A stretch of 39,585 nucleotides of DNA from Thermoproteota archaeon. GTDB lineage: Archaea > Korarchaeota > Korarchaeia > Korarchaeales > Korarchaeaceae. Below the pieces are notes generated by a model that was given only the letters and a program-made list of their open reading frames with translations, made no database searches and was not told the origin of the DNA. The stretch is taken from NCBI GenBank assembly GCA_037917625.1, contig JAVCBY010000112.1, positions 1 to 39,585 of the forward strand, in the 5' to 3' direction. The position numbers were made by a program, and so were the translations under genes. This document shows positions 1 through 39,585 of the stretch, one piece after another (the first letter of the stretch is position 1; the number at the start of each line of letters is the position of its first letter).

Positions 1-568
1 AACTGTAGAATATGAGGATTAGGAGTATCCCGTAGAACCAACCGGGTATAGCTGATGTCGGAGAGAGGTATATCGTCAACTTATCTAGGAATGAACCGAA
101 GTTCCTCGATAGGTAGAGCCCACCAAAGAGACCTATGAAGAATATTATAACGGTCGCTGTAGTGAATAGGAGTATAGTTTGGGGGAGCCTCTCCAATATT
201 ATGAGTCTCACTAATCTGGAGCCCGTATCACTAGTCATATACATGGATCTGCCCAAGTCCAAGGTCAGGGCGTTCCATAGGTAGATGAGGCTCCTTATTG
301 GGAAAGGCTGATCCAATCCCCTTAGCCTTATCTCATTTTCGACGAGCCTTTCGATGAGCTTATTCCTCTCCTCAATACTCAAGCCCTTGTAGAGGGGGTT
401 AGCGCTTACCCTCTGTGCGACATTAAATTTTATATCGCTTATTAGTATCTCATCGACATATCCTCCAGCATTAGCTATTAATATCGTCAGATAAGTGACG
501 ATAATGACCATTAGGAAAAGGACGAAGCCCCTCTTTATTAGTACCTTAGCTAGTGGAGGTATCCTCAT
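1..568 (-). CDS. Peptide/oligopeptide ABC transporter permease (DppB/OppB type), runs off the window start
   Basis: Not in the ORF track. Manual translation from the ATG at 568 gives MRIPPLAKVLIKRGFVLFLMVIIVTYLTILIANAGG...GLDQPFPIRSLIYLWNALTLDLGRS...ERLPQTILLF. AGGTGAG SD upstream; directly follows the binding-protein gene. Confidence 0.88.
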   Translation of the reverse strand, partial: MRIPPLAKVLIKRGFVLFLMVIIVTYLTILIANAGGYVDEILISDIKFNVAQRVSANPLYKGLSIEERNKLIERLVENEIRLRGLDQPFPIRSLIYLWNALTLDLGRSMYMTSDTGSRLVRLIILERLPQTILLFTTATVIIFFIGLFGGLYLSRNFGSFLDKLTIYLSPTSAIPGWFYGILLILIFYS

Positions 569-15888: not shown

Positions 15889-16398
15889 ATGCTAGTGGAC
15901 GATGGGATGAGGGTCCTATGGCTGGCTAGAACCGGTTGGATGCAGTCGGGCGTACCTGTAGCGATAGCCGAGACTGTAGCTCAGCATACATTCATAGCGT
16001 CCCTTATAGCTTTAGATCTATTCCCAAAAATGAGAGCATCTGGAAAAACTTTTAATGAAACTAAGGTGCTTAAGATGATACTTGTTCATGATATACATGA
16101 GGGGCTCTCCGGGGACTTGCCGAAGTGGATCGGTGAGAGGATAAACAGGAGGGTGCTGGAAGAGGAAGCTATCTCAAATATGAATCTCCCTGAGGAGATC
16201 AAGATTATTCTGAAGGAATACACACTCATGAAATCCGATGAAGCTAAGATCGCGAGATTAGCTGATCTCATGGCGACTTGGAGGATGGCGATATATTACA
16301 AGCAGCTGGGTTATGATGTCGATGATATACTGAGGAGCTCTCAGACTGAATCAATGAAGTTAGCGAAGGAGCTAGGGTTAGTAGTGGAAGATCTTTAG
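15889..16398 (+). CDS. HD-domain hydrolase (YfbR/YGK1-like 5'-nucleotidase)
   Basis: RTGW, ETVAQH, VHDIHEGLSGD, ADL. Start moved to ATG 15889. Confidence 0.82.
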   Translation: MLVDDGMRVLWLARTGWMQSGVPVAIAETVAQHTFIASLIALDLFPKMRASGKTFNETKVLKMILVHDIHEGLSGDLPKWIGERINRRVLEEEAISNMNLPEEIKIILKEYTLMKSDEAKIARLADLMATWRMAIYYKQLGYDVDDILRSSQTESMKLAKELGLVVEDL

Positions 16399-17327
16399 AC
16401 TTCTAAGACATCATCATATTTAGGGGAAGATCCAGGAAGCTTGTGAAGAGGTTCCCTCAGCCTGACGAACTCCTTGAATCTCTCAAAAATCTCCTCATCG
16501 CTTCCTCCATTCCTTATGATGCTGATGAAGTCCACTAGGGAATCCTCCCTAAATATGCAGGTTTTGAAAAACCCTTCCGCTGTCACCCTAAGTCTAGTGC
16601 ACCCCATACAGAATAGTGGATTTCCGCTGCCCTTAACGATCTCCACAGTAACTCCATCTAGCTCGAAGATAGGTCTATTTTGGAAGTCCCTGACCTCCCT
16701 CCTCAGGGCGACTTCATCGAGCTCCCTCTCGAAATCATCGAGTGGGAAGTAGTACTCACTTGACGTATCGAGCAGTTCTATCAGCTGGACCTTGAGCCCC
16801 TTCCTCCTCCCTAACTCCACTATATCCCAAAGCTCCCCCTCATTGATCCCCTTGAGAGCAGTGAAGTTCAGTTTAATGGGCTTCAATCCCCAGAGAAGGG
16901 CCTCATCTATGCCCTTAAGCACTTTCTCCAGACCATCAACACCAGTTATCCTCTCATAAACATCTCTCTTCAGGGAATGGAGGCTGACATTTATCCTATC
17001 GAGCCCAGCTTCCCTCAGGCCTCTAGCTCTCTCAACTAGGAAGTAACCGTTCGTGACTAAGCTCACTTCCTCCGCGCCTGAGGACTTGAGCTCTCTCACT
17101 ATCTCCTCTAGGTCCTCCCTCATGAGGGGCTCCCCTCCAGTCAACTTGACCCTCTTAACGCCATGCTTCGAGAGAACTCTCATCAATCTGCCTATCTCCT
17201 CAGGCTTCATCTCCTCCCCTCTGACGTAATGCCCCTCCCTATGGCAGAAGAAGCAATTGTAATTGCAGGAATTCGTGACTGATATCCTTAAATCCGTGAC
17301 CGGCCTCCCCCATCTATCTATCAACAA
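16395..17327 (-). CDS. moaA: GTP 3',8-cyclase
   Basis: DRWGR, LRISVT, CNYNCFFC, TGGEP, FCMGCTRLRVT...KTC. Confidence 0.93.
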   Translation of the reverse strand: MLIDRWGRPVTDLRISVTNSCNYNCFFCHREGHYVRGEEMKPEEIGRLMRVLSKHGVKRVKLTGGEPLMREDLEEIVRELKSSGAEEVSLVTNGYFLVERARGLREAGLDRINVSLHSLKRDVYERITGVDGLEKVLKGIDEALLWGLKPIKLNFTALKGINEGELWDIVELGRRKGLKVQLIELLDTSSEYYFPLDDFERELDEVALRREVRDFQNRPIFELDGVTVEIVKGSGNPLFCMGCTRLRVTAEGFFKTCIFREDSLVDFISIIRNGGSDEEIFERFKEFVRLREPLHKLPGSSPKYDDVLEV

Positions 17328-26628: not shown

Positions 26629-28131
26629 ATGGTGAATATAACGAAGAGATTTCACAATGTTGTAGCAAATAATAGAGTTCATTTTGATTTAAGGGAAGGA
26701 GAAATACATGCTTTGTTAGGGGAAAATGGGGCCGGTAAGACAACGCTGATGAACATACTCTACGGATTATATCGTCCTGATGAGGGCGAGATCTACGTAA
26801 GGGGTAAGAGGGTCAATATAAGGAGCCCGAGGGATGCAATAGAGTTGGGCATAGGTATGGTCCATCAGCACTTTCTCTTCGTCGAGGACCAGACAGTCGC
26901 TGAGAATCTAGCTCTTAGTTGTTCTAGAAGTTCCATCAATCCATTGAAGGATTTGGAGGAGGGATTAAGGGAGATGGAGAAGTATGGAATAAAGCTAGAT
27001 TTAGGATCATATATATGGCAGCTTTCACTGGGGGAACAGCAGAAGGTTGAGATAGCTAAAATATTGCTCTCGGGAGCTGATATAGTAATATTAGATGAGC
27101 CTACATCGGTCCTCACACCAAAAGAAGTGAACGAGCTATTCGAATGTTTGAGGATGATGAGATCGGATGGCAAGGGCATTATCTTCATAACTCATAAGCT
27201 CAATGAGGTCTTCTCCATAGCTGATAGAGTTACTGTAATGAGGAAAGGTAGCGTGGTCGCTACTTTACCGATAGAGAGAGCAACCAAGGAGGAACTCGCC
27301 AAAATGATGGTAGGAAGGGAAATATCATTCGAATATCAGAGATCCGAAGCAGCTAAGGGAGATCCCGTGCTTGAGGTACGGGGACTCTATGTCATCGGTG
27401 ATAGGGGGAAAGAGAGCGTTAAAGGAGTTTCGTTCAATGTTAGGGGCGGGGAGATATTTGGAATAGGAGGAGTCTCGGGGAACGGTCAGAGCGAGCTAGT
27501 AGAGTCCATAGTTGGGCTGAGGAAAGTTAAGAGAGGTAGGATAGTAGTTATGGGGAGGGATGTCACGAATAAGTCCTCTAGGGAGATCTCCGAGCTTGGA
27601 GTAGCTTATATACCGGAGGACAGGATGAGGTTCGGGATAGTTCAGAACATGAGTATAGCTGAGAACGCTGTGCTCAAGAGATATCATAAGGAGCCCTTTA
27701 GCTCGAGGGGGATCCTGAGGTATGAGAGGATAGTGGAATTCGCTGAGGATTTGATGGAGGAATTCGGCATAGTCGCGCCTTCAGCACATACACAGGCTAA
27801 AAATCTCTCGGGAGGTAACGTACAGAGGCTCGTGGCTGGGAGGGAACTCTCCGGGAATCCTAAGCTAATAGTAGCCTCGAATCCAACGCATGGTCTTGAT
27901 GTATCCGCCACTGAGTATATAAGGAACCTCCTCATTGCCCACAGGGATAATGGATCAGCGATATTACTCATATCGACAGATCTAGGGGAGCTACTCGAAT
28001 TGAGTGATAGAGTAGCTATAATGTTTGAAGGAAGGTTCTCCGGTATCTTTAAACCAGGAGAAATCTCATCAGAGGAATTGGGCCTGATGATGTCGGGAGG
28101 AATGTCTCTTGAAGTTAGTCAAGAGGGTTGA
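26629..28131 (+). CDS. Nucleoside/sugar (CUT2) ABC transporter ATP-binding protein, two ABC domains
   Basis: GENGAGKT, DEPT, ITHKL, LSGGNVQR, PTHGLDV. The true start may lie upstream. Confidence 0.92.
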   Translation: MVNITKRFHNVVANNRVHFDLREGEIHALLGENGAGKTTLMNILYGLYRPDEGEIYVRGKRVNIRSPRDAIELGIGMVHQHFLFVEDQTVAENLALSCSRSSINPLKDLEEGLREMEKYGIKLDLGSYIWQLSLGEQQKVEIAKILLSGADIVILDEPTSVLTPKEVNELFECLRMMRSDGKGIIFITHKLNEVFSIADRVTVMRKGSVVATLPIERATKEELAKMMVGREISFEYQRSEAAKGDPVLEVRGLYVIGDRGKESVKGVSFNVRGGEIFGIGGVSGNGQSELVESIVGLRKVKRGRIVVMGRDVTNKSSREISELGVAYIPEDRMRFGIVQNMSIAENAVLKRYHKEPFSSRGILRYERIVEFAEDLMEEFGIVAPSAHTQAKNLSGGNVQRLVAGRELSGNPKLIVASNPTHGLDVSATEYIRNLLIAHRDNGSAILLISTDLGELLELSDRVAIMFEGRFSGIFKPGEISSEELGLMMSGGMSLEVSQEG

Positions 28132-29173
28132 GGTCCCTAAGAAGCTTTTAATAGCTGTGAGGATTTACTCTATAGCTCTGGCCTTGATCCTATCATCCAT
28201 CCTCCTCCTAACGCAGGAGATCAATCCATATGAATTCTTCTCTAGTCTCCTGTTGAACATCTTCGGGACCAGGGTCGGCCTGACGGAATCCATCGTCAGG
28301 ATGATACCCCTACTCCTCATAAGCTCAGGATTATCGATCTCATTTAAGGCTGGCTTCTGGAACATAGGGGCTGAGGGGCAGCTGTTAGCTGGAGCTATGC
28401 TCGGTTATATATTAGCATCAAACCTAGATCTCCCTAGCCCCATTCAAATCCCCCTGCTCTTCATCTCAGGCTGCTTCGCTGGGGCAGCTTGGGGGGTTAT
28501 TCCGGCCCTACTGAAAGCTAAGCTCAATATGAATGATGTAATATCGACCCTCATGCTTTACTACGTGATCTACTGGATCTTCCAGCATATGATACATGGC
28601 CCATGGAAGGCTGTAGAGACAGTAGGTGGGCTCACTTACGGAGGATTCGCTCATACGAGCGTTATACCGGCCAACTCCCAGCTACCGGTGATAGAGGGGA
28701 CTAGGATACATTGGCCGACACTTCTAATAGCATTGTTCTCAACCTTCTTGGTTTACTTCATCCTCAAATGGACGACTTGGGGCTTCGAGATAAGGGCGAT
28801 GGGAGGCAATCCTGATGCTAGCAGAGCGGCTGGGATAAGTAGCACTAAGGTCTTACTGATAGTCGCAATGATAAGCGGGAGCCTCTCTGGAATAGCAGGA
28901 ATAGGAGAGCTTTGCGGGATTCAAAAAAGGTTCACACCGGAGTTCCTCTCAGGTTACGGATTTTCAGCAATAATAACTGCTTGGTTGAGTGGGACGAATC
29001 CTCTCAGCTTGGTGATCGCTAACTTCCTTTATGGAGGTCTATTGGTAGGCGGGAATTATGCTATGATATCTTACAAGCTTCCCATAGGATTCATAAATAT
29101 GTTCAACGGGATCATACTGCTATCCGTCCTGGCCGGCGATTTCATGGTGAGATACGAACTGAGGAGGGATTGA
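28109..29173 (+). CDS. Nucleoside-type ABC transporter permease 1
   Basis: NIGAEGQ, GFEIRAMGGNP, GYGFSAI. Confidence 0.9.
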   Translation: MKLVKRVEVPKKLLIAVRIYSIALALILSSILLLTQEINPYEFFSSLLLNIFGTRVGLTESIVRMIPLLLISSGLSISFKAGFWNIGAEGQLLAGAMLGYILASNLDLPSPIQIPLLFISGCFAGAAWGVIPALLKAKLNMNDVISTLMLYYVIYWIFQHMIHGPWKAVETVGGLTYGGFAHTSVIPANSQLPVIEGTRIHWPTLLIALFSTFLVYFILKWTTWGFEIRAMGGNPDASRAAGISSTKVLLIVAMISGSLSGIAGIGELCGIQKRFTPEFLSGYGFSAIITAWLSGTNPLSLVIANFLYGGLLVGGNYAMISYKLPIGFINMFNGIILLSVLAGDFMVRYELRRD

Positions 29174-29174
29174 G

Positions 29175-30101
29175 ATGGAGCTAGTAATAATAGAAAACAT
29201 CCTTTGGATAGGATTCAGGTCAGCTGTTCCCCTCCTTCTAGCGGCTCTTGGAGAAATATATGCAGAAAGGTCCGGAGTACTTAACTTAGGTGTAGAAGGG
29301 ATGATGGTCCTAGGGGCTGCTGCTTCCTTCATAGTCACGATGCAAACTAGGAACCCGTGGTTGGGCATATTATCTGGTCTCTCGGTGGCTGTGTTACTCG
29401 CTCTAGTGCACTGTTTTATCAGTATAACCCTGAAGTCCAATCAGGTAGTTTCGGGGCTAGCTCTCTCGATGCTGGGCCTCGGGATAAGCAGCCTTATAGG
29501 AAGGAATTACGTTGGAGCCCGGTTATCACCCGAAGTTAGGCTACTCCCGAAGCCCCTGGACCCTCTATCTAAAATTCCCTTGATCGGCAAACCGATATTC
29601 GATCAGGACCCAATGTTTTACATGAGCCTCTTCCTCACAGCGATCCTCTGGTCAATACTCTTCCGCACGAGGTATGGCATCATAGTGAGATCAGCTGGAG
29701 GAAATCCAGCGGCTGTGGATGCTGCCGGTATATCGGTAGCTAAGGTGAGATATGCTTCAACTATACTAGGAGGCGCATTATCAGGGTTAGCTGGAGCTTA
29801 CCTCTCGATATCGTACAATCCAGTTTGGATAGAGAACATAACGGCCGGTAGGGGGTGGATAGCTATAGCTCTCGTCATATTCTCCCTCTGGGATCCAGCT
29901 AAAGCTTTACTGACATCCTTCCTATTCGGGTCAATAGAAGCATCTAGCTACACTCTGCAGGCCCTAGGTTATAGCCAATGGCTCCTGAGTGCTCTACCCT
30001 ATCTCCTGACGCTCATAATATTGATGATAGGGTCCTCCAGTAGGTTCAGGAGGAGGATGGGAGCACCCCGCTACCTCGGGGTCCCATATGAGAGGGAGTG
30101 A
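29175..30101 (+). CDS. Nucleoside-type ABC transporter permease 2
   Basis: ERSGVLNLGVEG, AGRGWIAIA, LPYLLT, AP..LGVPY. Confidence 0.9.
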   Translation: MELVIIENILWIGFRSAVPLLLAALGEIYAERSGVLNLGVEGMMVLGAAASFIVTMQTRNPWLGILSGLSVAVLLALVHCFISITLKSNQVVSGLALSMLGLGISSLIGRNYVGARLSPEVRLLPKPLDPLSKIPLIGKPIFDQDPMFYMSLFLTAILWSILFRTRYGIIVRSAGGNPAAVDAAGISVAKVRYASTILGGALSGLAGAYLSISYNPVWIENITAGRGWIAIALVIFSLWDPAKALLTSFLFGSIEASSYTLQALGYSQWLLSALPYLLTLIILMIGSSSRFRRRMGAPRYLGVPYERE

Positions 30102-30173
30102 GAGGGGGAGGCCAACCCCCCATGAGGCTTGAAAAGCCCGGCCTCCCCCAGGCCGCCGCCCACGGCGGCCCAC
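30100..30173 (-). ncRNA. Putative GC-rich structured small RNA
   Basis: 8-bp and 10-bp perfect GC stems; BRE/TATA on the minus strand about 20-25 nt upstream; 12-nt complement to the BMP leader. Ends approximate. Confidence 0.6.
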
Positions 30174-30190
30174 TAACTTGGAATTCCATC

Positions 30191-30205
30191 CTTAAAAATT
30201 TTTCG
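30191..30205 (-). promoter_or_regulatory. BRE+TATA promoter for the putative sRNA
   Basis: Minus strand CGAAAAATTTTTAAG with no minus-strand CDS downstream. Confidence 0.6.
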
Positions 30206-30226
30206 TCGCGCCCAGCTGAAGGCATA

Positions 30227-30243
30227 GGGAAATTTTTATAAAA
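30227..30243 (+). promoter_or_regulatory. BRE+TATA promoter of the BMP gene
   Basis: GGGAAATTTTTATAAAA; SD GAGGTGA at 30273-30279. Confidence 0.6.
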
Positions 30244-30283
30244 TGATGTCGCAACACGTCATAGCCCCCCATGAGGTGATCTT

Positions 30284-31576
30284 ATGTCGTATAGGTGGCT
30301 CGCACTCTCTCTTATCCTCCTGTTACTGGGTGTCGTAGGGGGATACTTCCTAGCCCCCAAGGGGACCACGCAAACGGTCACACAGACCTTGACGCAGACA
30401 GTGAAGGAGACCTCAACTCCCGTTCAGGAGAAGAAGGTGAAGGCAGCATTCATATACATAGGACCCATAGGGGATTACGGCTGGACTCATGCCCATCATC
30501 AAGCCAAGGAAATGATAGATAAGAAATACGACTGGCTCGAGACAACTCAAGTGGAATCCGTAACTCCTGCAGCATCAGCAGGCGTAATGGAGCAGCTAAT
30601 CTCTCAAGGATATAGCGTCATATTCACGACGAGCTTCGATTTCATGGATCCGACACTTGAGGAGGCCAAGAAGCACCCTAATATAATATTCTGGCACTGC
30701 TCGGGTTATAAGAGGAGCGCTAACATGGGAACCTATTTCTCGGAGTTCTATCAAGTCTACTATCTGAATGGGCTCATGGCAGGCGCCCTGACTAAGACGA
30801 AGAAGATAGGTTACGTAGCCGCTCATCTCATACCTGAAGTGGTCAGGCACATAAACGCTTTCGCTATAGGGGTGAATGAGGTCTGCCCGGACTGCAAGGT
30901 CTATGTCAGGGAAATAGGAGCATGGGTAGATCCGATAAAAGCGAGACAGGCTGCGGAGGCCTTGATATCTGAGGGAGTCGATGTACTAGCTTTCACGGAG
31001 GACACCCCTACGGTCGTCCAAGTCGCTGAGGAGCACTTCATGAGAGGCGAGAGGATCCTCGCATTCGGTCACTACAGCCCGATGAAGGAATACGGGAAGG
31101 ATGTATGTGTCAGCGGACAGATAGCCCACTGGGAAGTCATGTACGATGATATACTCTCGAAGATATACGCGGGCTCCTACACGAATGAGAACTTAGAAAA
31201 CGTTGATTACTGGTGGAAACTGAAGGAGGGATCCGTTGAGCTCGGTTGTGCTCATAATGAGCCCGTGAATCCGAAGTTCATAGATGAACTGAGATCGGTA
31301 AGGGTAAAGGGGGATGTTCAGTTGCCGAATGGTACTGTGCTGAAGGATCCTGATGTGTACACATTGATCTTCGCTAGACTAGCTCAAATGGGTGCTATCT
31401 GGACGGGAAATGGATGGAAATACGTGAATGATGAGACCTTCGATCCATTCACGGGGCCTATATATGATAACAAGGGTAAGCTCAGAGTACTGCCGGGTCA
31501 GAGGATAGGACACGATGAACTCTGGTCGATGCAATGGTGGGTCAGTAATATTGTGGGCCCCGAACTCGGGGGCTAA
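30284..31576 (+). CDS. BMP-family ABC substrate-binding protein (purine/nucleoside type)
   Basis: N-terminal TM and Thr-rich linker, GPIGDYGWTHAH, IPEVVRHINAFAIG, DPFTGPIYDNKG. Confidence 0.9.
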   Translation: MSYRWLALSLILLLLGVVGGYFLAPKGTTQTVTQTLTQTVKETSTPVQEKKVKAAFIYIGPIGDYGWTHAHHQAKEMIDKKYDWLETTQVESVTPAASAGVMEQLISQGYSVIFTTSFDFMDPTLEEAKKHPNIIFWHCSGYKRSANMGTYFSEFYQVYYLNGLMAGALTKTKKIGYVAAHLIPEVVRHINAFAIGVNEVCPDCKVYVREIGAWVDPIKARQAAEALISEGVDVLAFTEDTPTVVQVAEEHFMRGERILAFGHYSPMKEYGKDVCVSGQIAHWEVMYDDILSKIYAGSYTNENLENVDYWWKLKEGSVELGCAHNEPVNPKFIDELRSVRVKGDVQLPNGTVLKDPDVYTLIFARLAQMGAIWTGNGWKYVNDETFDPFTGPIYDNKGKLRVLPGQRIGHDELWSMQWWVSNIVGPELGG

Positions 31577-32454
31577 TCCTTTTTTAATTGCATCCTCATC
31601 CACTTAATGCGTTTTATCGCTTCAAAACCGGCTGCTTCGAAAGCTCCCCTGTACTTGCACCATGTCTGGGTCCTCACTTTAGTTGCTCCCATATCATATG
31701 CTATCGATAGAGCCATCTCAGCTGAGTCGAAAATCTGGCCTAAGCTTGCCCTCTCAGGCCCCCATATCAGAGCATATAAGTAGTTATCATCAGCTGTCGG
31801 CCTGAAAAGTCCCAAAACGAACTCCCAAAGGCCGACCCTCACCTTGAAGACCCTGGGAGGCGGAAGGCCCACTGCTTCTCTACCCCAGAGGAGCTCCCAA
31901 AGGAGAGCTGATGGTCTTGTCTGCCCTGCTAACATCTGGACAGCTACTGGAAGCTCTCTCTTTCCTATCTCCTCTATCTTAGGCTGCTCAGGGGCCGGTC
32001 TGGGCTTAGCTTCCATGAGCACCTGGGATTCTATCTCCGAGAATCCGAGGGCCTCGAAGAAGGGAATGGCCTCATCATATGGTATTGTATCGAGAGCATA
32101 GAATCCCATCTCTCTCGCTAATTTGCCGCATTCTTCAACGAGCCTTCTCCCAACTCCTATACCCCTCTCCCCTTCCTTAACCCAGACCATCTGTAGGTAA
32201 GCGTGATCCCCTACGGGACACTTCAACCTCTCAGGGACGATCTCCGCCTCTCCTATCAAAGTATCATCCTTCAGAGCCATCAATATTTTCCCATCAGATG
32301 ATAATAAAGCATCTATGTACCAACTGAAGACCTCCGGATCTCCCCAGTAACCGCAATCCCTTATCCTCATGCTCAATGGCATCTCCTTCCACTTAGGGCA
32401 GTGGATGGAGATTACGTCCTCAAGGAATCTATGATCGAACTTAACTATCCTCAA
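31573..32454 (-). CDS. GNAT family acetyltransferase (GNAT plus degenerate second repeat)
   Basis: VWVKEGERGIGVGRRLV acetyl-CoA motif, FFEALGF, and a second FEAAGF near the C-terminus. Confidence 0.78.
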   Translation of the reverse strand: MRIVKFDHRFLEDVISIHCPKWKEMPLSMRIRDCGYWGDPEVFSWYIDALLSSDGKILMALKDDTLIGEAEIVPERLKCPVGDHAYLQMVWVKEGERGIGVGRRLVEECGKLAREMGFYALDTIPYDEAIPFFEALGFSEIESQVLMEAKPRPAPEQPKIEEIGKRELPVAVQMLAGQTRPSALLWELLWGREAVGLPPPRVFKVRVGLWEFVLGLFRPTADDNYLYALIWGPERASLGQIFDSAEMALSIAYDMGATKVRTQTWCKYRGAFEAAGFEAIKRIKWMRMQLKKD

Positions 32455-33203
32455 GGGATCCCCTCCAGTATCTCATTAAGGGCGATCAATGCCCTACTAG
32501 CCCCCTCCTTCATCCTGAACTTAGCGAATCTACTTAAATTGGTTTCCTCTGGATTTATCTCAACTAAAGTGGCTTTGTTCTCCAGTGCTATCATCGGCAG
32601 GGTTGCTGCTGGCATAACGAGCCCACTAGTTCCTATTATCAGCAACAAATTAGCTGATCTCATCATATCCTCCGCTCTAATCCACTCATCTCGAGGGAGC
32701 GGCTCGTAGAACCAGACGACATCCGGCCTCATGATGGAACCGCATCTATCGCACTCAGGCGGTACCCTCTCCGGCAAATTCCCGAAGCCCAAATAGATCT
32801 TATTATCACAAGAAGTACATCTTATCCTCCAAATCGAACCGTGAAGCTCCACTAAGTTCTTTGAGCCCGCTTTTTGATGGAGACCGTCCACATTCTGCGT
32901 TACCACACCCCTCAAAATACCCCTATCTTCCCAGAGAGCGAGTATCTCATGAGCTGGTGTAGGTTGAGCCCTCGCTATAATGGACATCCTCCATAAATAC
33001 CAATCCCAGACGAGCTTAGGGTCTCTGAAGAATGCATGAGGGGTCGCGAGTTCCTCCGGATTATATCTCTCCCAAAGACCTCCCTTCCCTCTGAAAGTCG
33101 GTATTCCTGCCTCAGCTGAGATACCTGCTCCTGTGAAAGCTACAACATTACCAGAGTTCCTCCTTATGAGCTCAGCTACTGATCTAAGCTCATGGAAGCT
33201 CAT
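32451..33203 (-). CDS. cobB: NAD-dependent protein deacylase, sirtuin class III
   Basis: GAGISAEAGIPTFRG, TQNVDGLH, LHG, CxxC/CxxC, RPDVVWF, GTS. Confidence 0.93.
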   Translation of the reverse strand: MSFHELRSVAELIRRNSGNVVAFTGAGISAEAGIPTFRGKGGLWERYNPEELATPHAFFRDPKLVWDWYLWRMSIIARAQPTPAHEILALWEDRGILRGVVTQNVDGLHQKAGSKNLVELHGSIWRIRCTSCDNKIYLGFGNLPERVPPECDRCGSIMRPDVVWFYEPLPRDEWIRAEDMMRSANLLLIIGTSGLVMPAATLPMIALENKATLVEINPEETNLSRFAKFRMKEGASRALIALNEILEGIP

Positions 33204-34500
33204 GGGGCTCGACCTCAGGGGGCTTCAATGGATAGTTCCTCACTTCAGCCTCTAAGGGGCATCCTCCTCTGCAGAAAGTGAGGAGGGGGCAGCTCTTGCA
33301 GGCATCTCCTACATAAGCCGCCTCCCTTATGCTGAGACATTCCTTAGAGTACCATATGTCCATCCATCTATCCCTCAGTATGTTCCCAAGCTTCAAGTAG
33401 TGACTCTGGCACGGTATAACAGTGCCATCGGGCTCTACAGCTAGGTTGATGCTGCAAGCGGAGCAGAACTTCAGTCCAAGACCCGCATTTATGGGATCCA
33501 TCTCACAGTACCTCGTAACTCCATACCAGGTGAAATCGAGGTCCAGTTCTATAGCTAGTTCCTTAGCTTCAGTTATTATGTTCATCATCTCCTCGAAGCT
33601 CGGCTCCATATCTAGAGTAGCTCTCCCACTGTAAATGACTCTATCGAGGGAGTAACCGTGGACCCCCAATTCCGCAACGAATCTAATAGTATCCAATATA
33701 GTCGGTGAGTTCATCTTCAGTAGCGTTGAGTTGACGCTCACATAAACTCCAGTATTCACCATATTCTTTATCCCCCTGACGGTCCTCTCCCAGCTCCCCC
33801 TGACCCCAGTGATGGAATCGTGGATATAAGGATCCTTCGACTCCAAAGTTATCTGAGCGTAATCTAAGCCAGCCTCCGCTAATCTCCTAGAGAGATCTTC
33901 ACTCAGCAAAGTCCCATTCGTCACGATCCCAGATACCATTCCTAGCTTCTGAGCTTCAGAGACTAGATCGACGAGATCCTCCCTTAAGGTGGGCTCCCCA
34001 CCCGTGAAAGTGACTTGAGGTACCCCTAGCTCATGAAATATCCTCAAAACTTTTTTCCAATCTTCAGAGTTCAGTTCCTCCGTTTCCCTAGGGCTCGATG
34101 AGTAACAATGGATGCAATCATTATTGCACCTATAAGTGAGGTTTAGGTCGACTCTTAGAGGAGCCGACATGACGGTCACATCCGGTAGCTGATACTTGAA
34201 TCCCAGATCCGTGACAGGATCACCATAACCATCTATGAACATCCTTATTTTCTCAGTTATCTCAGTGAAGTGCCTCCTAACTTCACTTTTCTTCATCCCT
34301 CTGTAGTAATTCTTGAGCTCTCTAGCTGCTTGCTTCCAATCGCCACCTAGAAGAAATGCCTTAATCATTATCGCTGCTGTGTGATTGAGATAAGCTACTC
34401 TACTTGCGTCCACGATGAGAGAGCTAATTCCATAAGGATCTATCCTTAGCTGAATCCTATGCCCCTTGTAGTTGAGCGCCAAGAGCTCCCTCTCGCTCAT
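33190..34500 (-). CDS. Radical SAM/SPASM enzyme with N-terminal PqqD/RRE-like domain
   Basis: CNNDCIHC, FTGGEP, SPASM CSAC..DGTVIPC..CKSCPLLTFCRGGC, N-terminal YLNHTAA..ARELKNYY segment. Start at ATG 34500 (ATGA overlap). Confidence 0.88.
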   Translation of the reverse strand: MSERELLALNYKGHRIQLRIDPYGISSLIVDASRVAYLNHTAAIMIKAFLLGGDWKQAARELKNYYRGMKKSEVRRHFTEITEKIRMFIDGYGDPVTDLGFKYQLPDVTVMSAPLRVDLNLTYRCNNDCIHCYSSSPRETEELNSEDWKKVLRIFHELGVPQVTFTGGEPTLREDLVDLVSEAQKLGMVSGIVTNGTLLSEDLSRRLAEAGLDYAQITLESKDPYIHDSITGVRGSWERTVRGIKNMVNTGVYVSVNSTLLKMNSPTILDTIRFVAELGVHGYSLDRVIYSGRATLDMEPSFEEMMNIITEAKELAIELDLDFTWYGVTRYCEMDPINAGLGLKFCSACSINLAVEPDGTVIPCQSHYLKLGNILRDRWMDIWYSKECLSIREAAYVGDACKSCPLLTFCRGGCPLEAEVRNYPLKPPEVEPHELP

Positions 34501-36149
34501 CCCACACCACCTCCAGCGCAAGCGCAAGCACAACTAACGCACGCGCATGCACAAGCGCAACTTACACAAGCGCAGGATATAACGCGCCTCTTGCTGCTCC
34601 CCCTCGGTCTCTCAGGTGTTATAGTTCTCGCGATCTTGTCGGAGAAATCCTCCATGTTCCTCACGATGGAGGAGGAGAAGCCCTCAATGGATCTAGCTAT
34701 GGAATCGGCCGCTTTCTCTATACTTATGACGGGGGCTTCCGCTTCGGATCTAGCGCCTCCCTCAGACCGACTTCTAACTGGCTCCCCGGGGTAGGGTATG
34801 TAGATAGTACCTCCTCTCGGGACCCAGATCCAAGTATCCTCCGGGGTCCAGGTGCCCCCTAAGGGGTGGGAAATTTGATCAGGAGATAAGCCCTCCTTCA
34901 GATACCTCTTCAGATTCCTCTCAAAGTTCTCATCTGTGAGCAACCATGAGAGATTCTCCTTCAAGATCTCGAGTCTCTTCTCCATTGGAGCTTGAGAAAT
35001 TTCCTTCCAAATGGAATTGACGAGCTTCTCATAATGAGCTATTGTACCGAGCCTCGAGTAACCAGCTATCTCCCTATTGACTCTCCTATGTAAGCTCTTG
35101 ATCACGTTCACTAGACAATCTTCAGAAGGGACGCCTCCATCCAGGCAATCGAGGAAGACCTTCTCGTAGGCCCTCAGTTGAGAGGAGGCGTTGTTCAATT
35201 TCTCCATCTCCAACGGCTCTACACTCTTCACCCTAATGAACCCCTTACTCGATAATTCCAGCGCTATAGTAGCTAATATCTTCCCATAACTTATCTTTCT
35301 CCCCTCCAGCTTCTTCAGATAAGCGACCTCCGGGGGCCTCAAGTTCTTATTCACTCCTAGGCTCTCGACAGAGACTTCAGGAGGCTTATAGATGGACTTC
35401 TCGATCAGGGCCTTCACGTACCTCACTATGAGGAATATCGAGAGGACGACGGCCCCCAGGAATATGAGACCGATTGCAGTGTAAAGGAGATCCTCACCCT
35501 CTGATCCCTTAACGTAAGATCTCACATATCCCTTTGGGAATGAGACACCGACGTCTAACTTGTAATTCGGTGGTAGATCGTATCTCTCCCAGTAAAGGGC
35601 TAGTCTACCATCTTCAAGTGGTATCAGATTATCGTAGTCCGGTTGACTCTTGATCTCATTACTATTGACTCCAGGGGGGAGTATTATCCAGAGCCTCAGG
35701 GCTCTAACTCTAGCATCGAACCAAGATGGGATGAACTTAAGCCCAACGTTCCCCGGGTTTGTTGAATCCTCATGAAGGAAATCTTTGAGCACTACCTCTA
35801 AATGATAACTTCTAGATTCCCCTGCATTTATTGGAGTTATAGGGTGCATTTTCACAGCATAATAAGATTCCTCAACGACTTTATCATAATCTACTTCCCT
35901 AGCCTCTCCGTTTATCATTTCTAGAGCTTTCAACACATCGAACCTAGAGTTAGGCATCCCTATGGTGACGTATCTAGCTACAGTACCGGAGGTCACGTGG
36001 ATCGTCAAGTTGTATGATAGGAATACATCCCCGGACTCATCTATCTCAAGTATTACTGCCTCATCTTCCACTTCATAGCTTATTTGAGCCAATGTCACGA
36101 TGGGAGCGATCATCAGAAGGGACAAAGCTATTAAGCATAGGTAACGCAT
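34497..36149 (-). CDS. DUF2207-like membrane protein with Cys-rich C-terminal tail
   Basis: Signal peptide, beta-rich ectodomain, TM helix, LRPPEVAYL/ATIALEL..KGFI segment, ends SCACVSCACACACVSCACACAGGGVG. Confidence 0.8.
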   Translation of the reverse strand: MRYLCLIALSLLMIAPIVTLAQISYEVEDEAVILEIDESGDVFLSYNLTIHVTSGTVARYVTIGMPNSRFDVLKALEMINGEAREVDYDKVVEESYYAVKMHPITPINAGESRSYHLEVVLKDFLHEDSTNPGNVGLKFIPSWFDARVRALRLWIILPPGVNSNEIKSQPDYDNLIPLEDGRLALYWERYDLPPNYKLDVGVSFPKGYVRSYVKGSEGEDLLYTAIGLIFLGAVVLSIFLIVRYVKALIEKSIYKPPEVSVESLGVNKNLRPPEVAYLKKLEGRKISYGKILATIALELSSKGFIRVKSVEPLEMEKLNNASSQLRAYEKVFLDCLDGGVPSEDCLVNVIKSLHRRVNREIAGYSRLGTIAHYEKLVNSIWKEISQAPMEKRLEILKENLSWLLTDENFERNLKRYLKEGLSPDQISHPLGGTWTPEDTWIWVPRGGTIYIPYPGEPVRSRSEGGARSEAEAPVISIEKAADSIARSIEGFSSSIVRNMEDFSDKIARTITPERPRGSSKRRVISCACVSCACACACVSCACACAGGGVG

Positions 36150-36211: not shown

Positions 36212-36886
36212 ATGCGTGTAGCGAGGGATATCGAATTCCTAGAGGGTGAATTGAGGCTCCTGGCTAGCGGTGAGGAAATAAAACCTGAGATCAGAAGCCT
36301 CAATGAGCTAAAATCTGTCTTAATGAAGCCCGAATCCTTGGAAAAAGATGATGCAGCTTATATGATGTACAGGGACCTTCCCCCTCTGAGGGATAGCCCC
36401 ATTAGATTGGATTTAACGGTAATACCCCCTTGGAATGTGGGAGGCGAGCTCGCAAAAACGAAAGGTCATTATCATCTCCCTCTGAACGGGAAGCTCCTCC
36501 CTGAGGTTTACTGCATCCATTCCGGAAGGGCCATCTTTCTACTGCAGAGGAGGGGGGCATCCATATATGAGGTGGAGGACTTCATACTGATGGAAGCTGA
36601 AGCAGGGCGTTATATCATAGTACCACCGGGATACGGGCATGTGAGCGTTAACGCAGGAGCTGATACGCTTGTGATGAGCAACTTGATCCATAGAAGAGTG
36701 ATACCTGATTACGGGCCCTATGAGATGACGAGGGGTGCGGCATATTATTTGACATCAGAAGGGCTAGTCAGGAACCCGAGATATGCGAAAGTCCCTGAGC
36801 CTAGATATGAGGAAGGCCTCAGATACAGCTCCTTGGATGATCTAATGAACGATAGGGAGATCTTAGAAAAGCTAACGGATCCCTAA
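36212..36886 (+). CDS. Cupin-type glucose-6-phosphate isomerase family protein
   Basis: YMMYRD, KTKGHYH, PEVY, VPPGYGHVSVN, GAAYY, NPRY. Confidence 0.82.
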   Translation: MRVARDIEFLEGELRLLASGEEIKPEIRSLNELKSVLMKPESLEKDDAAYMMYRDLPPLRDSPIRLDLTVIPPWNVGGELAKTKGHYHLPLNGKLLPEVYCIHSGRAIFLLQRRGASIYEVEDFILMEAEAGRYIIVPPGYGHVSVNAGADTLVMSNLIHRRVIPDYGPYEMTRGAAYYLTSEGLVRNPRYAKVPEPRYEEGLRYSSLDDLMNDREILEKLTDP

Positions 36887-38127
36887 TGTACTCTGTATTC
36901 AACTCCTCCTTTCACATGGCCGAAGCCTATCAGCCTCCACCTATTCCCTACCCTCGCTGAGATAGCTACCCTCTGATCCAACTCCGCTACAGCAGGGATC
37001 CTAACAAGGAGCTTCATAAAATCATTATTTATCTCCCTAAGGACAGCTGGGGCAGTAGCTGTACCTATATTCAACTGGATGAAATCCCCAGCTTTGGGCT
37101 TAGTTACTGAGATCTCCTCCTTCATCCCTACTATCTTATCGAAGAACTTCGCCTCTATATCGAGCTCCGACCAAGTAGGCGGCAATTCATTGGGCATGCC
37201 AACGACACTTCCCACCATATTATCAGCTTTCGTCAACGCTGGATCTAGGAGAGTCCCCACGCCTATCAGCCCACCCGGATAGGCTTCCTCGAGAGGGGTA
37301 TCCTCGCTCTTCAGACTCACTATCTTAGTAGTTAAGGGGATGAACTTACCTCCCCTGTAGGCCCCGGGCCTTATCTCTATCTCATCCCCCAATCCGAACC
37401 TGCCCTGAATGATGGTCCCCCCTAGAACACCCCCTACTAGTTTCTCAGGCCTCGTACCTGGCCTATTGACATCGAACGATCTCGCGACGTACATCTTTGG
37501 GGTCTTCGTCGGATCCCTCTGCGGAGGGGTGAATCTCCTCACCATCTCCCTTATCAAGAAGTCTATATTAACTCCATGCAGAGCCGATACAGGTATTATA
37601 GGCGGTATTTCATCTAAATTTGCCTCAAGAAATCTAAGGATCTGCTCATAATTTCTTATAGCCTCCTCTTCACTCACTAGCTCTATCTTAGTTTGAACTA
37701 CTATTATCTGCTTCACCCCCATTATCTTCAGGGCCATCAAGTGCTCCCTAGTCTGAGGTTGGGGCACGGGCTCGTTCGAGGCTATTACGAAGAGAGCTGC
37801 ATCCATCAAAGTCGAGCCAGCTAGCATAGTCGCCATCAAAGTATCGTGGCCCGGGCAATCCACTAGAGATATCTTCCTGAGCAATATAGTCTCACTACCA
37901 TCGATAGGACACCTCTTAGAAGTCGTATAACACTTAGGCTCATCGCACGAAGGGCACTTCCTGAGGTCGGCATTAGCATAGCCTAACTTTATAGTTATAC
38001 CCCTTCTCAACTCCTCACTATGTCTCTCAGGCCAGACCCCCGTCAGGGCTTGGACTAGGGTGGACTTGCCATGGTCGACATGACCAGCAGTGCCCACGTT
38101 CATCTCCGGCTGAAGGATCTCCCTCAT
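36883..38127 (-). CDS. eif2g: Translation initiation factor 2 gamma subunit
   Basis: QPEMNVGTAGHVDHGKST, RGITIKLGY, DCPGH, PQPQTREHL, RSFDVNRPG, RWRLIG. Confidence 0.95.
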   Translation of the reverse strand: MREILQPEMNVGTAGHVDHGKSTLVQALTGVWPERHSEELRRGITIKLGYANADLRKCPSCDEPKCYTTSKRCPIDGSETILLRKISLVDCPGHDTLMATMLAGSTLMDAALFVIASNEPVPQPQTREHLMALKIMGVKQIIVVQTKIELVSEEEAIRNYEQILRFLEANLDEIPPIIPVSALHGVNIDFLIREMVRRFTPPQRDPTKTPKMYVARSFDVNRPGTRPEKLVGGVLGGTIIQGRFGLGDEIEIRPGAYRGGKFIPLTTKIVSLKSEDTPLEEAYPGGLIGVGTLLDPALTKADNMVGSVVGMPNELPPTWSELDIEAKFFDKIVGMKEEISVTKPKAGDFIQLNIGTATAPAVLREINNDFMKLLVRIPAVAELDQRVAISARVGNRWRLIGFGHVKGGVEYRVH

Positions 38128-38136
38128 TCGATCACC

Positions 38137-38556
38137 TTAAGAAGCCTCGCTCTTTCCTAATATCTCCTCTAGGGGTTTATCCCCCTTCTTAATCACTTTA
38201 AGGTTTATCTGTCTCATAGCATCTGAGATAATGCCTCCTCTAACGAGCTTAGCCCTCCTCTCTCCTTCCCTCTTAGGATGGAAGCCGGGTGGGGAGGATA
38301 GGAGGAGCCTCTTCTTCCCCATCGTGGGTAAGGAGGGGTGCATGGGGAAGCCATCCCTATCAGTCCCTCCAGTTATCTTGAAGGCGTGCCCGGGCAAGCC
38401 GAAGGGATCGCCAGAGATCTCCTCACCTATCCTCTTGCCTATGAAATACCTGAGGCTCTCCTTGGGCAGTTTGAGGTGAAAAGTTTTTCCAGTACTTGGA
38501 TCTCCTATATCGAGCACTAGGAATTCCTCAACGACACCTCTCCTCCTGCTGGACAT
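38137..38556 (-). CDS. rps6e: 30S ribosomal protein S6e
   Basis: KITGGTDRDGFPM, GERRAKLVRG, QINLKV; conserved infB-rps6e-eif2g order. Confidence 0.93.
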   Translation of the reverse strand: MSSRRRGVVEEFLVLDIGDPSTGKTFHLKLPKESLRYFIGKRIGEEISGDPFGLPGHAFKITGGTDRDGFPMHPSLPTMGKKRLLLSSPPGFHPKREGERRAKLVRGGIISDAMRQINLKVIKKGDKPLEEILGKSEAS

Positions 38557-38766
38557 ATTGGATCACCACGGTGAAGACCGAGGAGAATATATAAGCTTCA
38601 GCCATCCAGAACTACATAACGGCTTTGAGTTCATGAAGCCTCTCACTTCGAGAATGAGAGTCCCCTAGGCTATGATCGATGGATATCAAACCCTACGTGG
38701 ATTTCCTCCCTTCATAATCTTGAGACCATGCAGGCAGCTCATCCATGAAGCTCAGGGGAATCCAGC

Positions 38767-39402
38767 TCAATCCTCCCTCTCAGCTCTTCCTGAATACTTT
38801 ATCCAAATTATCCTCCTGTAAAGCTCTTTCTCCTCATCACTCATCTTACTGAAGTAGATCTCCCTCGATCTCTCATCCTCGAATTCACTGACCTCTGTAT
38901 AAAGTGTTTTTCCTTCTTTAACGTTCCTCCCCACGATACCGCCCCTTATCGATACAGCTACCCTCTGCCCCTTCCTCGCCTCCGGTATCCTATTGCCCTC
39001 GTGTTGTATGTCCAATATCGTACCGACCCTCCTCCCGCTCTCGCTTATGAGAGGATAACCGGGCCTTATTGAACCTAAGATAACCTCGACACCAACTATA
39101 GCAGGATCGCTCCTCCTGAAAATGAAATTAGGTAGAACTAAGATCTCCGCAGGAAAAACAGCATGAGAAAGTACTCTTTCCTCCTCTTTTCTCCTCAAAT
39201 CCTCTAAATAAGACTTGAATTTCTCTATAAGGGTATAGATTATCACGTCCTCGAAGATAGAGACTCCCCTAGATAGGGCCTCCCGCTTTATCTCCTCGCT
39301 CACCCTCACGTTGAAAGCTAATATAGCTGAGTACCTCTCATCGCTCCCCCTGATGACAGAAGCTTCGAATACATCTGCTTTCGTCACCTCCCCTATATCG
39401 GC
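38767..39402 (-). CDS. infB: Translation initiation factor aIF5B/IF-2, C-terminal part
   Basis: ADIGEVTKADV, ILAFNV, VIIYTL, FRRSDPAIVGVEV, VAVSI, VGRNV. The first ~47 aa of the ORF-track protein are not IF2-like. Confidence 0.9.
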   Translation of the reverse strand, partial: ADIGEVTKADVFEASVIRGSDERYSAILAFNVRVSEEIKREALSRGVSIFEDVIIYTLIEKFKSYLEDLRRKEEERVLSHAVFPAEILVLPNFIFRRSDPAIVGVEVILGSIRPGYPLISESGRRVGTILDIQHEGNRIPEARKGQRVAVSIRGGIVGRNVKEGKTLYTEVSEFEDERSREIYFSKMSDEEKELYRRIIWIKYSGRAERED

Positions 39403-39585
39403 TCCTGATCTAGAGGGCGTACTAGCCGGTTCTCCAATATACGTGGTGAGGGATCCCGCGATGCTTGAGGAGATGAAGAGGGAGGTGCAGGAGGAAGTTG
39501 AGAGGATCGTGATAAAAACGGATAGGATAGGTGTGATAGTCAAGGCTGATGCATTGGGGACATTGGAAGCCTTAATATCTCAACT
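39401..39585 (+). other. infB: Inverted internal segment of infB
   Basis: Plus frame from 39401 reads APDLEGVLAGSPIYVVRDPAMLEEMKREVQEEVERIVIKTDRIGVIVKADALGTLEALISQ, the aIF5B segment that normally lies shortly upstream of ADIG. Confidence 0.88.

Follow-up and report, generated by a model that had tools for sequence, protein, structure and literature searches.

We describe a candidate small RNA (sRNA) gene in a 39,585-nt stretch of DNA from a Thermoproteota archaeon of the family Korarchaeaceae (contig JAVCBY010000112.1 of assembly GCA_037917625.1, positions 1 to 39,585; hereafter the window). It lies in the 182-nt gap between the second permease gene of an ATP-binding cassette (ABC) operon and the gene for a BMP/PnrA-like ABC substrate-binding protein (hereafter BMP); this gap contains a structured element, two AT-rich boxes and two copies of a 12-mer, CCCCCCATGAGG. 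Comparison of related sequences makes it fairly probable that the element encodes a trans-acting sRNA, read from the minus strand, which occludes the regions where translation starts on the mRNAs for BMP and adenine deaminase.

The proposed sRNA gene would span ~75-85 nt and would probably be read from the minus strand, its promoter and that of BMP lying back-to-back. The large internal loop of the RNA's GC-rich stem would expose (C)AUGGGGGG(UU), a seed predicted to pair with the opening 12-16 nt of the BMP mRNA, where it would cover half of a Shine-Dalgarno-like site. In the clade to which the window belongs, the seed is also predicted to pair with the initial 14 nt of the mRNA for adenine deaminase, where it would cover the AUG. 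With ribosome access blocked at both sites, purine nucleoside uptake and adenine salvage would be lowered jointly. In a second subclade (clade C, below), an extra pairing with BMP codons 2-7 would leave the start codon bracketed by two duplexes. We infer that the RNA is made, that it has approximately these ends, and, from the position of the duplex, that the outcome is repression; protection of the mRNA 5' end from exonucleases would be an alternative outcome, indistinguishable here.

The Korarchaeia are uncultured or barely cultured, and a full-text literature search found no description of a regulatory RNA in them. If the proposal is correct, it would provide their first concrete post-transcriptional circuit, one tied to purine salvage, as well as a clean case for following, at ~80 C, an sRNA that acts on the very first bases of archaeal mRNAs with short or almost no leaders. 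Being short and exact, the pairing lends itself to direct testing in vitro. Why a nucleoside-type binding protein and an adenine deaminase might be regulated together is suggested by the related organism Korarchaeum cryptofilum, which passages of two papers list as lacking purine synthesis and as reliant on uptake and salvage (PMC3261824; PMC12787533).

Structure and conservation of the element

The source assembly (G000) comprises 1,223,236 bases in 116 contigs (84% complete, 47.5% G+C). The comparison set comprised 21 genomes from the korarchaeal genus to which the window belongs, plus 19 genomes from six other genera of the class. Nineteen genomes bear the element, and these form three sequence groups: clade A (the window genome with G016, G012 and G017), clade B (G014, G015, G006 and G004) and clade C (the remaining 11). 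The parts of the element, its flanking promoters and the BMP target site are as follows.

30101-30173, minus strand: candidate small RNA, structured core of ~73 nt (covariance-model match, covariation and fold)
30151-30170, minus strand: hairpin H2, 8 bp with a 4-nt loop, 5'-terminal on the minus strand (fold; three of the eight pairs change on both sides across genomes)
30104-30113, minus strand: stem 1, arm beside the permease stop codon (10 nt, 100% complementary to 30140-30149)
30140-30149, minus strand: stem 1, second arm (complementarity and covariation)
30126-30138: small hairpin, GGCT (30126-30129) with AGCC (30135-30138) (fold)
30116-30127, minus strand: seed CCUCAUGGGGGG (minus-strand reading), within the stem 1 internal loop (unchanged in 18 of 19 genomes)
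30190-30205, minus strand: box resembling a B recognition element and TATA box (BRE/TATA) for the minus-strand RNA (matrix score 9.6, top 0.02% of genome windows; 29 nt before H2)
30230-30241, plus strand: BRE/TATA box of the BMP gene (matrix score 10.6; 31 nt before the first 12-mer base)
30263-30278, plus strand: BMP target site at the predicted mRNA 5' end, consisting of the exact 12-mer (30265-30276) and flanking A-U and G.U pairs (duplex scan)
30273-30280, plus strand: GAGGTGAT, which we take to be a Shine-Dalgarno-like site, 3 nt before the ATG at 30284 and half covered by the duplex (read from the sequence)

Read from the minus strand, the predicted fold consists of a 5' hairpin (H2) followed by a long stem, whose asymmetric internal loop presents the seed; the last two to four bases of the seed are shared with the small hairpin. 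These stems and hairpins had already been drawn at the same coordinates in a first-pass annotation made from the window alone, and they were borne out here: the arms of the 10-bp stem are fully complementary, and both the 30151-30170 hairpin and the small one appear in the folds. The seed differs only in G003, at one end position (T at position 1 of the element copy).

A covariance model (R1), built on the minus strand from nine sequences, found exactly one copy in each of 19 of the 21 genus genomes (in G000, contig C41 30101-30173, minus strand) and no match in any of the 19 genomes from the six other genera. The two genus genomes without a match are G002 (99% complete) and G013 (70% complete). 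A DNA search located the intergenic region in 16 of the 20 other genus genomes. When the 19 copies were aligned with the model as guide, 98.3% of the cells were paired and eight of 24 pairs changed on both sides, four of them in the stem 1 helix; none of 500 shuffles matched this combination of pairing and double changes, and sliding the partner by 1-3 columns reduced the paired fraction to 44-61%. Since this alignment was fitted to a structure drawn by hand on related genomes, these figures attest to the structure and do not amount to a probability. An alignment with plain MAFFT misaligned the 3' arm of stem 1 between clades, so that RNAalifold missed stem 1; it did report three double changes in H2. 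This alignment was replaced by the covariance-model one. By these comparisons the element is real, conserved, single-copy and structured rather than a product of chance, and it is specific to one korarchaeal genus.

The earlier remark that the element resembles no known family agrees with a search of the whole window against Rfam, which gave no match at gathering level; the best sub-threshold match was mir-9201 (21.5 bits against a threshold of 95.5), and all such sub-threshold matches were to microRNA families, at chance level. We also considered a small protein, as an ATG in the element opens a 39-codon frame, and rejected it because neither frame nor peptide is kept between clades, among which the element differs by 10-12 nt.

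To locate promoters we used a BRE/TATA matrix trained on 629 upstream regions of G000 (consensus AAGTTTTTAAAT). Genome-wide, AT-only 8-mers in G000 are most frequent 29-33 nt ahead of start codons. Counted from the BMP TATA core, the BMP-proximal 12-mer begins 29-33 nt downstream in each of the 19 element-bearing genomes, a distance equal to that genome-wide TATA-to-ATG peak, so that the 12-mer would be the first dozen bases of the BMP mRNA. An equivalent of the minus-strand box likewise stands 29-33 nt ahead of H2 in every one of the 19 genomes; it ranks in the top 0.02-0.16% of genome windows, and its sequence differs among the three clades. The first-pass annotation had already recognized the back-to-back promoters in the window. 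The AT-rich boxes at 30193-30201 and 30230-30238 are inverted copies of each other, and in clade B the minus-strand box stays beside the element even where the BMP promoter is up to 700 nt away.

Pairing with the BMP and adenine deaminase mRNAs

The 12-mer occurs exactly at 30116-30127, in the internal loop of the element, and at 30265-30276, at the predicted 5' end of the BMP mRNA; its presence at just two places in the window, noted on first inspection, was confirmed. The whole 1,223,236-base assembly holds only three exact copies. Allowing up to one mismatch, the window itself contains three matches against 0.35 expected, a number reached by 1 of 100 shuffles. The 12-mer itself occurs 52 times in the 21 genus genomes together, against six occurrences of a reversed control pattern. 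The seed had been credited with 12 Watson-Crick pairs to the BMP mRNA, or about 16 with its flanks, and the fold of the duplex indeed has 16 paired positions. When the 20-nt seed region was scanned against 4818 start regions of G000, BMP ranked first at 80 C and second at 37 C, and BMP and adenine deaminase filled the top two ranks at both temperatures; at 80 C their predicted duplexes reached -15.0 and -12.7 kcal/mol against a median of -3.4.

The element and the BMP site occur together in 19 of 19 genomes, and both 12-mers are exact in 16. Loss of seed-target complementarity in orthologs that keep the stems had been named as an outcome that would tell against an sRNA, and the comparison gave the opposite: the other three genomes differ either at position 1 of the element copy (G003) or by a C-to-T change in the BMP leader (ACCCTCATGAGG in G008 and G018) that keeps a G.U pair. 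The two 12-mer copies are spaced 148-165 nt apart in clades A and C and 184-795 nt apart, across unalignable sequence, in clade B. In two clade B genomes, G015 (L006 1580-2040) and G004 (L008 590-1260), the unalignable stretch between the AT-box of the element and the BMP promoter spans 460-700 nt.

Conversely, the BMP locus of G002 has neither the element nor a C-run, and four BMP loci from neighbouring genera are without the element and without the 12-mer or any variant within two substitutions. In a BMP tree, the motif-less proteins (that of G002 and three from neighbouring genera) nest among the motif-bearing ones, with the fork unresolved. This placement could reflect co-loss of RNA and site, or a conflict between the gene tree and the species tree.

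A scan for further seed sites, as the first-pass annotation had proposed, led to the third genomic copy of the 12-mer (contig C29 9549-9560, minus strand; locus L036/L139). It spans the ATG of a 594-aa protein identified as adenine deaminase (TIGR01178, 483 bits against a curated cut-off of 472.5), lies 21-22 nt after a TATA box, and supplies with its ATG AGG the first two codons. All nine orthologs with 79% identity or more carry the site, which is exact in six, while the remainder of the promoter has diverged. In the three inexact orthologs the bases before the ATG are TCCCCC (G004), ACTCCT (G017) and ACTCCC (G019), and each of these sites pairs over 11 positions with one or two G.U wobbles and position 1 unpaired. 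The other genus genomes have only a relative of adenine deaminase with 42-46% identity, which is without the motif. For comparison, C5 runs close to start codons are rare in G000 (14 of 629), and a wobble-tolerant version of the pattern has 178 matches in that genome.

The sequence AGCTGAAGG precedes both promoters: in the window it occupies 30214-30222, and on C29 the adenine deaminase TATA box follows it by ~60 nt. In G015, G014 and G004 the TATA box of adenine deaminase has related forms 14-17 nt ahead of it. With 47 copies genome-wide, mostly in coding sequence, AGCTGAAGG is not supported as a shared operator. A further possible seed site, CCCCTTATGAGGCT, follows a TATA-like box at the end of contig C95 of G000 (~85-100, plus strand) and ranked about fifth in the 37 C duplex scan; its distance from the TATA-like box seems too short.

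In the 11 genomes of clade C, cofolding predicts that a second segment of the RNA, GGCCCGCGGGUAGAGG (GGCCCACGGGUAGAGG in G008 and G018), pairs with BMP codons 2-7 (CCUCUACCCAGUGGGCC) through 16 bp, made up of 9 and 7 bp with one bulged A. The energy of this block lay under those of all 200 target shuffles in 10 of the 11 genomes (z -2.3 to -4.5; G003, z -2.3). No comparable block turned up in clades A and B (eight genomes, z +0.4 to -1.3) or with adenine deaminase in its nine genomes (z +0.7 to -1.2). Across the 11 genomes, third-codon positions are 82-100% identical in codons 2-7 and 36-100% identical in codons 8-16.

Read on its plus strand, the element of these same 11 genomes has its blocks in the order found at the BMP 5' end, namely the 12-mer, a spacer, CCTCTACCC and G(C/T)GGGCC, which points to an origin by partial duplication. 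A more elaborate scenario may be built on this, which we offer tentatively and regard as possible though rather doubtful: the sRNA gene would have arisen by partial tandem duplication of the 5' end of its own target, read backwards from the back-to-back promoter, to yield a two-block clamp on the BMP start codon and, through the shared seed, a regulon switch coupling nucleoside import to adenine deamination. Such an origin would resemble the supposed rise of plant microRNA genes from their targets.

The substitutions at the target sites may also be read in terms of pairing. Six internal changes occur in the target sites, and each replaces C by T at a position facing a predicted G of the RNA: BMP position 5 (G008/G018), adenine deaminase positions 3 and 6 (G017) and 3 (G019), codon 4 (G003) and codon 7 (G019/G003). 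Position 1 of the 12-mer is loose, with A in three sites and T in one. The C-to-T pattern fits RNA pairing that tolerates G.U, with the proviso that transitions are common anyway and the events few.

Strand assignment and rival explanations

Folding alone does not give the strand, because both strands fold better than their shuffles (minus z -3.07, plus z -5.28); the minimum free energy is lower on the minus strand in 18 of 19 genomes, which is not decisive since G-rich strands generally fold better. One H2 pair runs through the series C-G, U.G and U-A, a wobble only if the minus strand is the RNA, and a second wobble, in H2 of G009 and G001, would on the plus strand give tandem C.A and A.C mismatches. 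Over the modelled structure, the minus strand has 16 wobbles and 7 mismatches and the plus strand 1 wobble and 22 mismatches. Finally, the G000 genome has no other site with the 12-mer's reverse complement, so that a plus-strand RNA would have no pairing partner.

Several observations weigh against a minus-strand, seed-pairing RNA. The wobble count is biased by a structure that was drawn on the minus strand; inclusion of the junction pair 34/79 adds nine U.G cells to the plus strand (nine clade C genomes; C.A on the minus strand), one G.U pair of G003 fits the plus strand only, and a wobble test by column pairs gave five for the minus strand and two for the plus, which is not clean. The better fold z-score belongs to the plus strand. 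In G000 the predicted unpaired probability of the seed G-run is 0.48-0.81 at 80 C and 0.03-0.17 at 37 C, so that at the lower temperature the run would be mostly paired within the RNA. A minus-strand run of at least four Ts within 110 nt after stem 1 is present in only four of 19 genomes, giving no consistent terminator; we infer that the RNA would get its 3' end by being trimmed as far as stem 1. Thirteen of 19 genomes have a plus-strand T4-5 run 29-31 nt past H2, and the operon transcript may therefore read through the element. Seed and targets never change together, which means that true covariation between them is lacking, and the compared genomes are akin to one another, such that all counts overstate independence. 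A counter-example is provided by metagenome contig L182, from kin of G008 and G018, in which the seed has a G-to-A change at position 6 unmatched in the BMP leader: the element, ~200 nt ahead of BMP, reads ACCCCTATGAGG on its plus strand and the leader reads ACCCTCATGAGG, with position 1 pairing and position 6 forming an internal C.A mismatch. The stems of L182, a single short contig, contain two further wobbles possible on the minus strand only.

In a rival explanation, the plus strand would be the functional one and the element a structured 3' untranslated region of the ABC operon mRNA, serving as terminator or stabilizer and carrying a copy rather than a complement of the BMP 5' end, for example as a decoy for a protein that binds the BMP and adenine deaminase mRNAs at their 5' ends. 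The element begins 2 nt past the permease stop codon in the window and follows that codon directly in 15 of 19 genomes, and the T4-5 run, the plus-strand fold and the pairs in G003 and at the junction all conform to this view. We nevertheless consider it unlikely. The four clade B genomes have 22-113 nt inserted before the element and no T4 run after H2, yet the element and its AT-box are intact; in G004 a T6 run even stands upstream of the element, within the insert. The tandem mismatches in H2 of G009 and G001 speak against the plus strand as well, the target changes that are all C-to-T would be left unexplained, and no binding protein that a decoy might engage is indicated; we know of no protein that binds the 5' ends of BMP or adenine deaminase mRNAs. 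It is quite possible that both strands are transcribed, in which case the 3' end of the operon mRNA would be a perfect antisense partner of the small RNA.

The 12-mer might instead be a DNA operator for a factor governing a purine-salvage regulon, its third site falling inside a hairpin by chance. Both promoter sites start at the predicted transcription start, the typical placement of archaeal repressors, and the two genes are functionally linked. However, the motif lacks dyad symmetry, its three copies all face the same way with respect to the genes, the third sits in the loop of a stem whose arms covary, no regulator gene is nearby, and the 16-bp second block in the BMP coding sequence would go unexplained; we judge an operator very unlikely. 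To the remaining explanation, that the BMP 5' end was once partly duplicated in tandem and the element is only what is left, a hairpin with no part in regulation, we give hardly any credence: the repeated 5'-end layout in 11 genomes would suit it, but a relic would be expected to decay, whereas the 12-mer is held constant in all but one of the 19 genomes as its flanks and the stem arms change, and the same 12-mer is conserved at an unrelated gene. The sRNA interpretation of the first-pass annotation is supported, with every part testable by sequence comparison turning out as predicted.

Comparison with known RNAs and gene neighbourhood

GcvB-type bacterial sRNAs use a G-rich single-stranded seed to pair with C-rich sites at or before the ribosome-binding sites of mRNAs for ABC binding proteins, several related mRNAs being served by one seed. 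They are bacterial, depend on Hfq, have many targets and share no homology with the korarchaeal candidate, which has two conserved targets and no known chaperone. Among archaea, sRNA154, sRNA41 and sRNA162 of Methanosarcina mazei are described, in passages of two sources, as repressing translation initiation (PMC5867862, PMC3510493). Like the candidate as predicted from its sequence, they are small structured RNAs whose loops mask ribosome-binding sites. The candidate differs in belonging to another phylum, with no sequence or Rfam relationship, and in that its site is the extreme 5' end of the mRNA, one target being the AUG of a near-leaderless message; its gene adjoins its main target. On our reading, the candidate would act like archaeal sRNAs that mask ribosome-binding sites, by analogy and with no common sequence or family.

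An intergenic sRNA of Saccharolobus solfataricus, according to a passage in one of these sources, binds the 3' untranslated region of its target mRNA (PMC5867862). It belongs to the same broad lineage (Thermoproteota) and also acts by base pairing, in contrast to the candidate's predicted pairing at translation start regions. Archaeal guide RNAs of the C/D box and H/ACA types are likewise small, GC-rich and structured, and present a sequence in an internal loop. We rejected this class for the candidate because by reading there is no C box (TGATGA), D box (CTGA) or ACA box in 30101-30173 (minus strand), the loop is one-sided and Rfam gives no match.

The genes of the ABC operon and the adjoining BMP gene, all on the plus strand, were assigned as follows.

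26629-28131, plus strand: ABC ATPase (Pfam PF00005; the permeases of the same operon, PF02653)
28109-29173, plus strand: ABC permease 1 (Pfam PF02653)
29175-30101, plus strand: ABC permease 2 (Pfam PF02653), stop codon 2 nt before stem 1
30284-31576, plus strand: BMP/PnrA-like ABC substrate-binding protein, 430 aa (Pfam PF02608, E 4e-38)

The BMP protein is a putative nucleoside-type binder; its sole NCBIfam match lies far under the cut-off. Elsewhere in the window, a one-mismatch copy of the 12-mer, CCCCTCATGAGG, is found at 17118-17129 (minus strand) with a perfect palindrome, CCTCATGAGG, inside the span of the open reading frame 16395-17327. A 550-aa open reading frame at 34497-36149 (minus strand) matches no Pfam family at E 1e-5 or better. 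Genes for a GNAT acetyltransferase and a Sir2 deacetylase (31573-33203, minus strand) lie tail-to-tail with BMP, and those for eIF2-gamma, ribosomal protein S6e and an IF-2-like protein (36883-39543, minus strand) occupy the end of the window.

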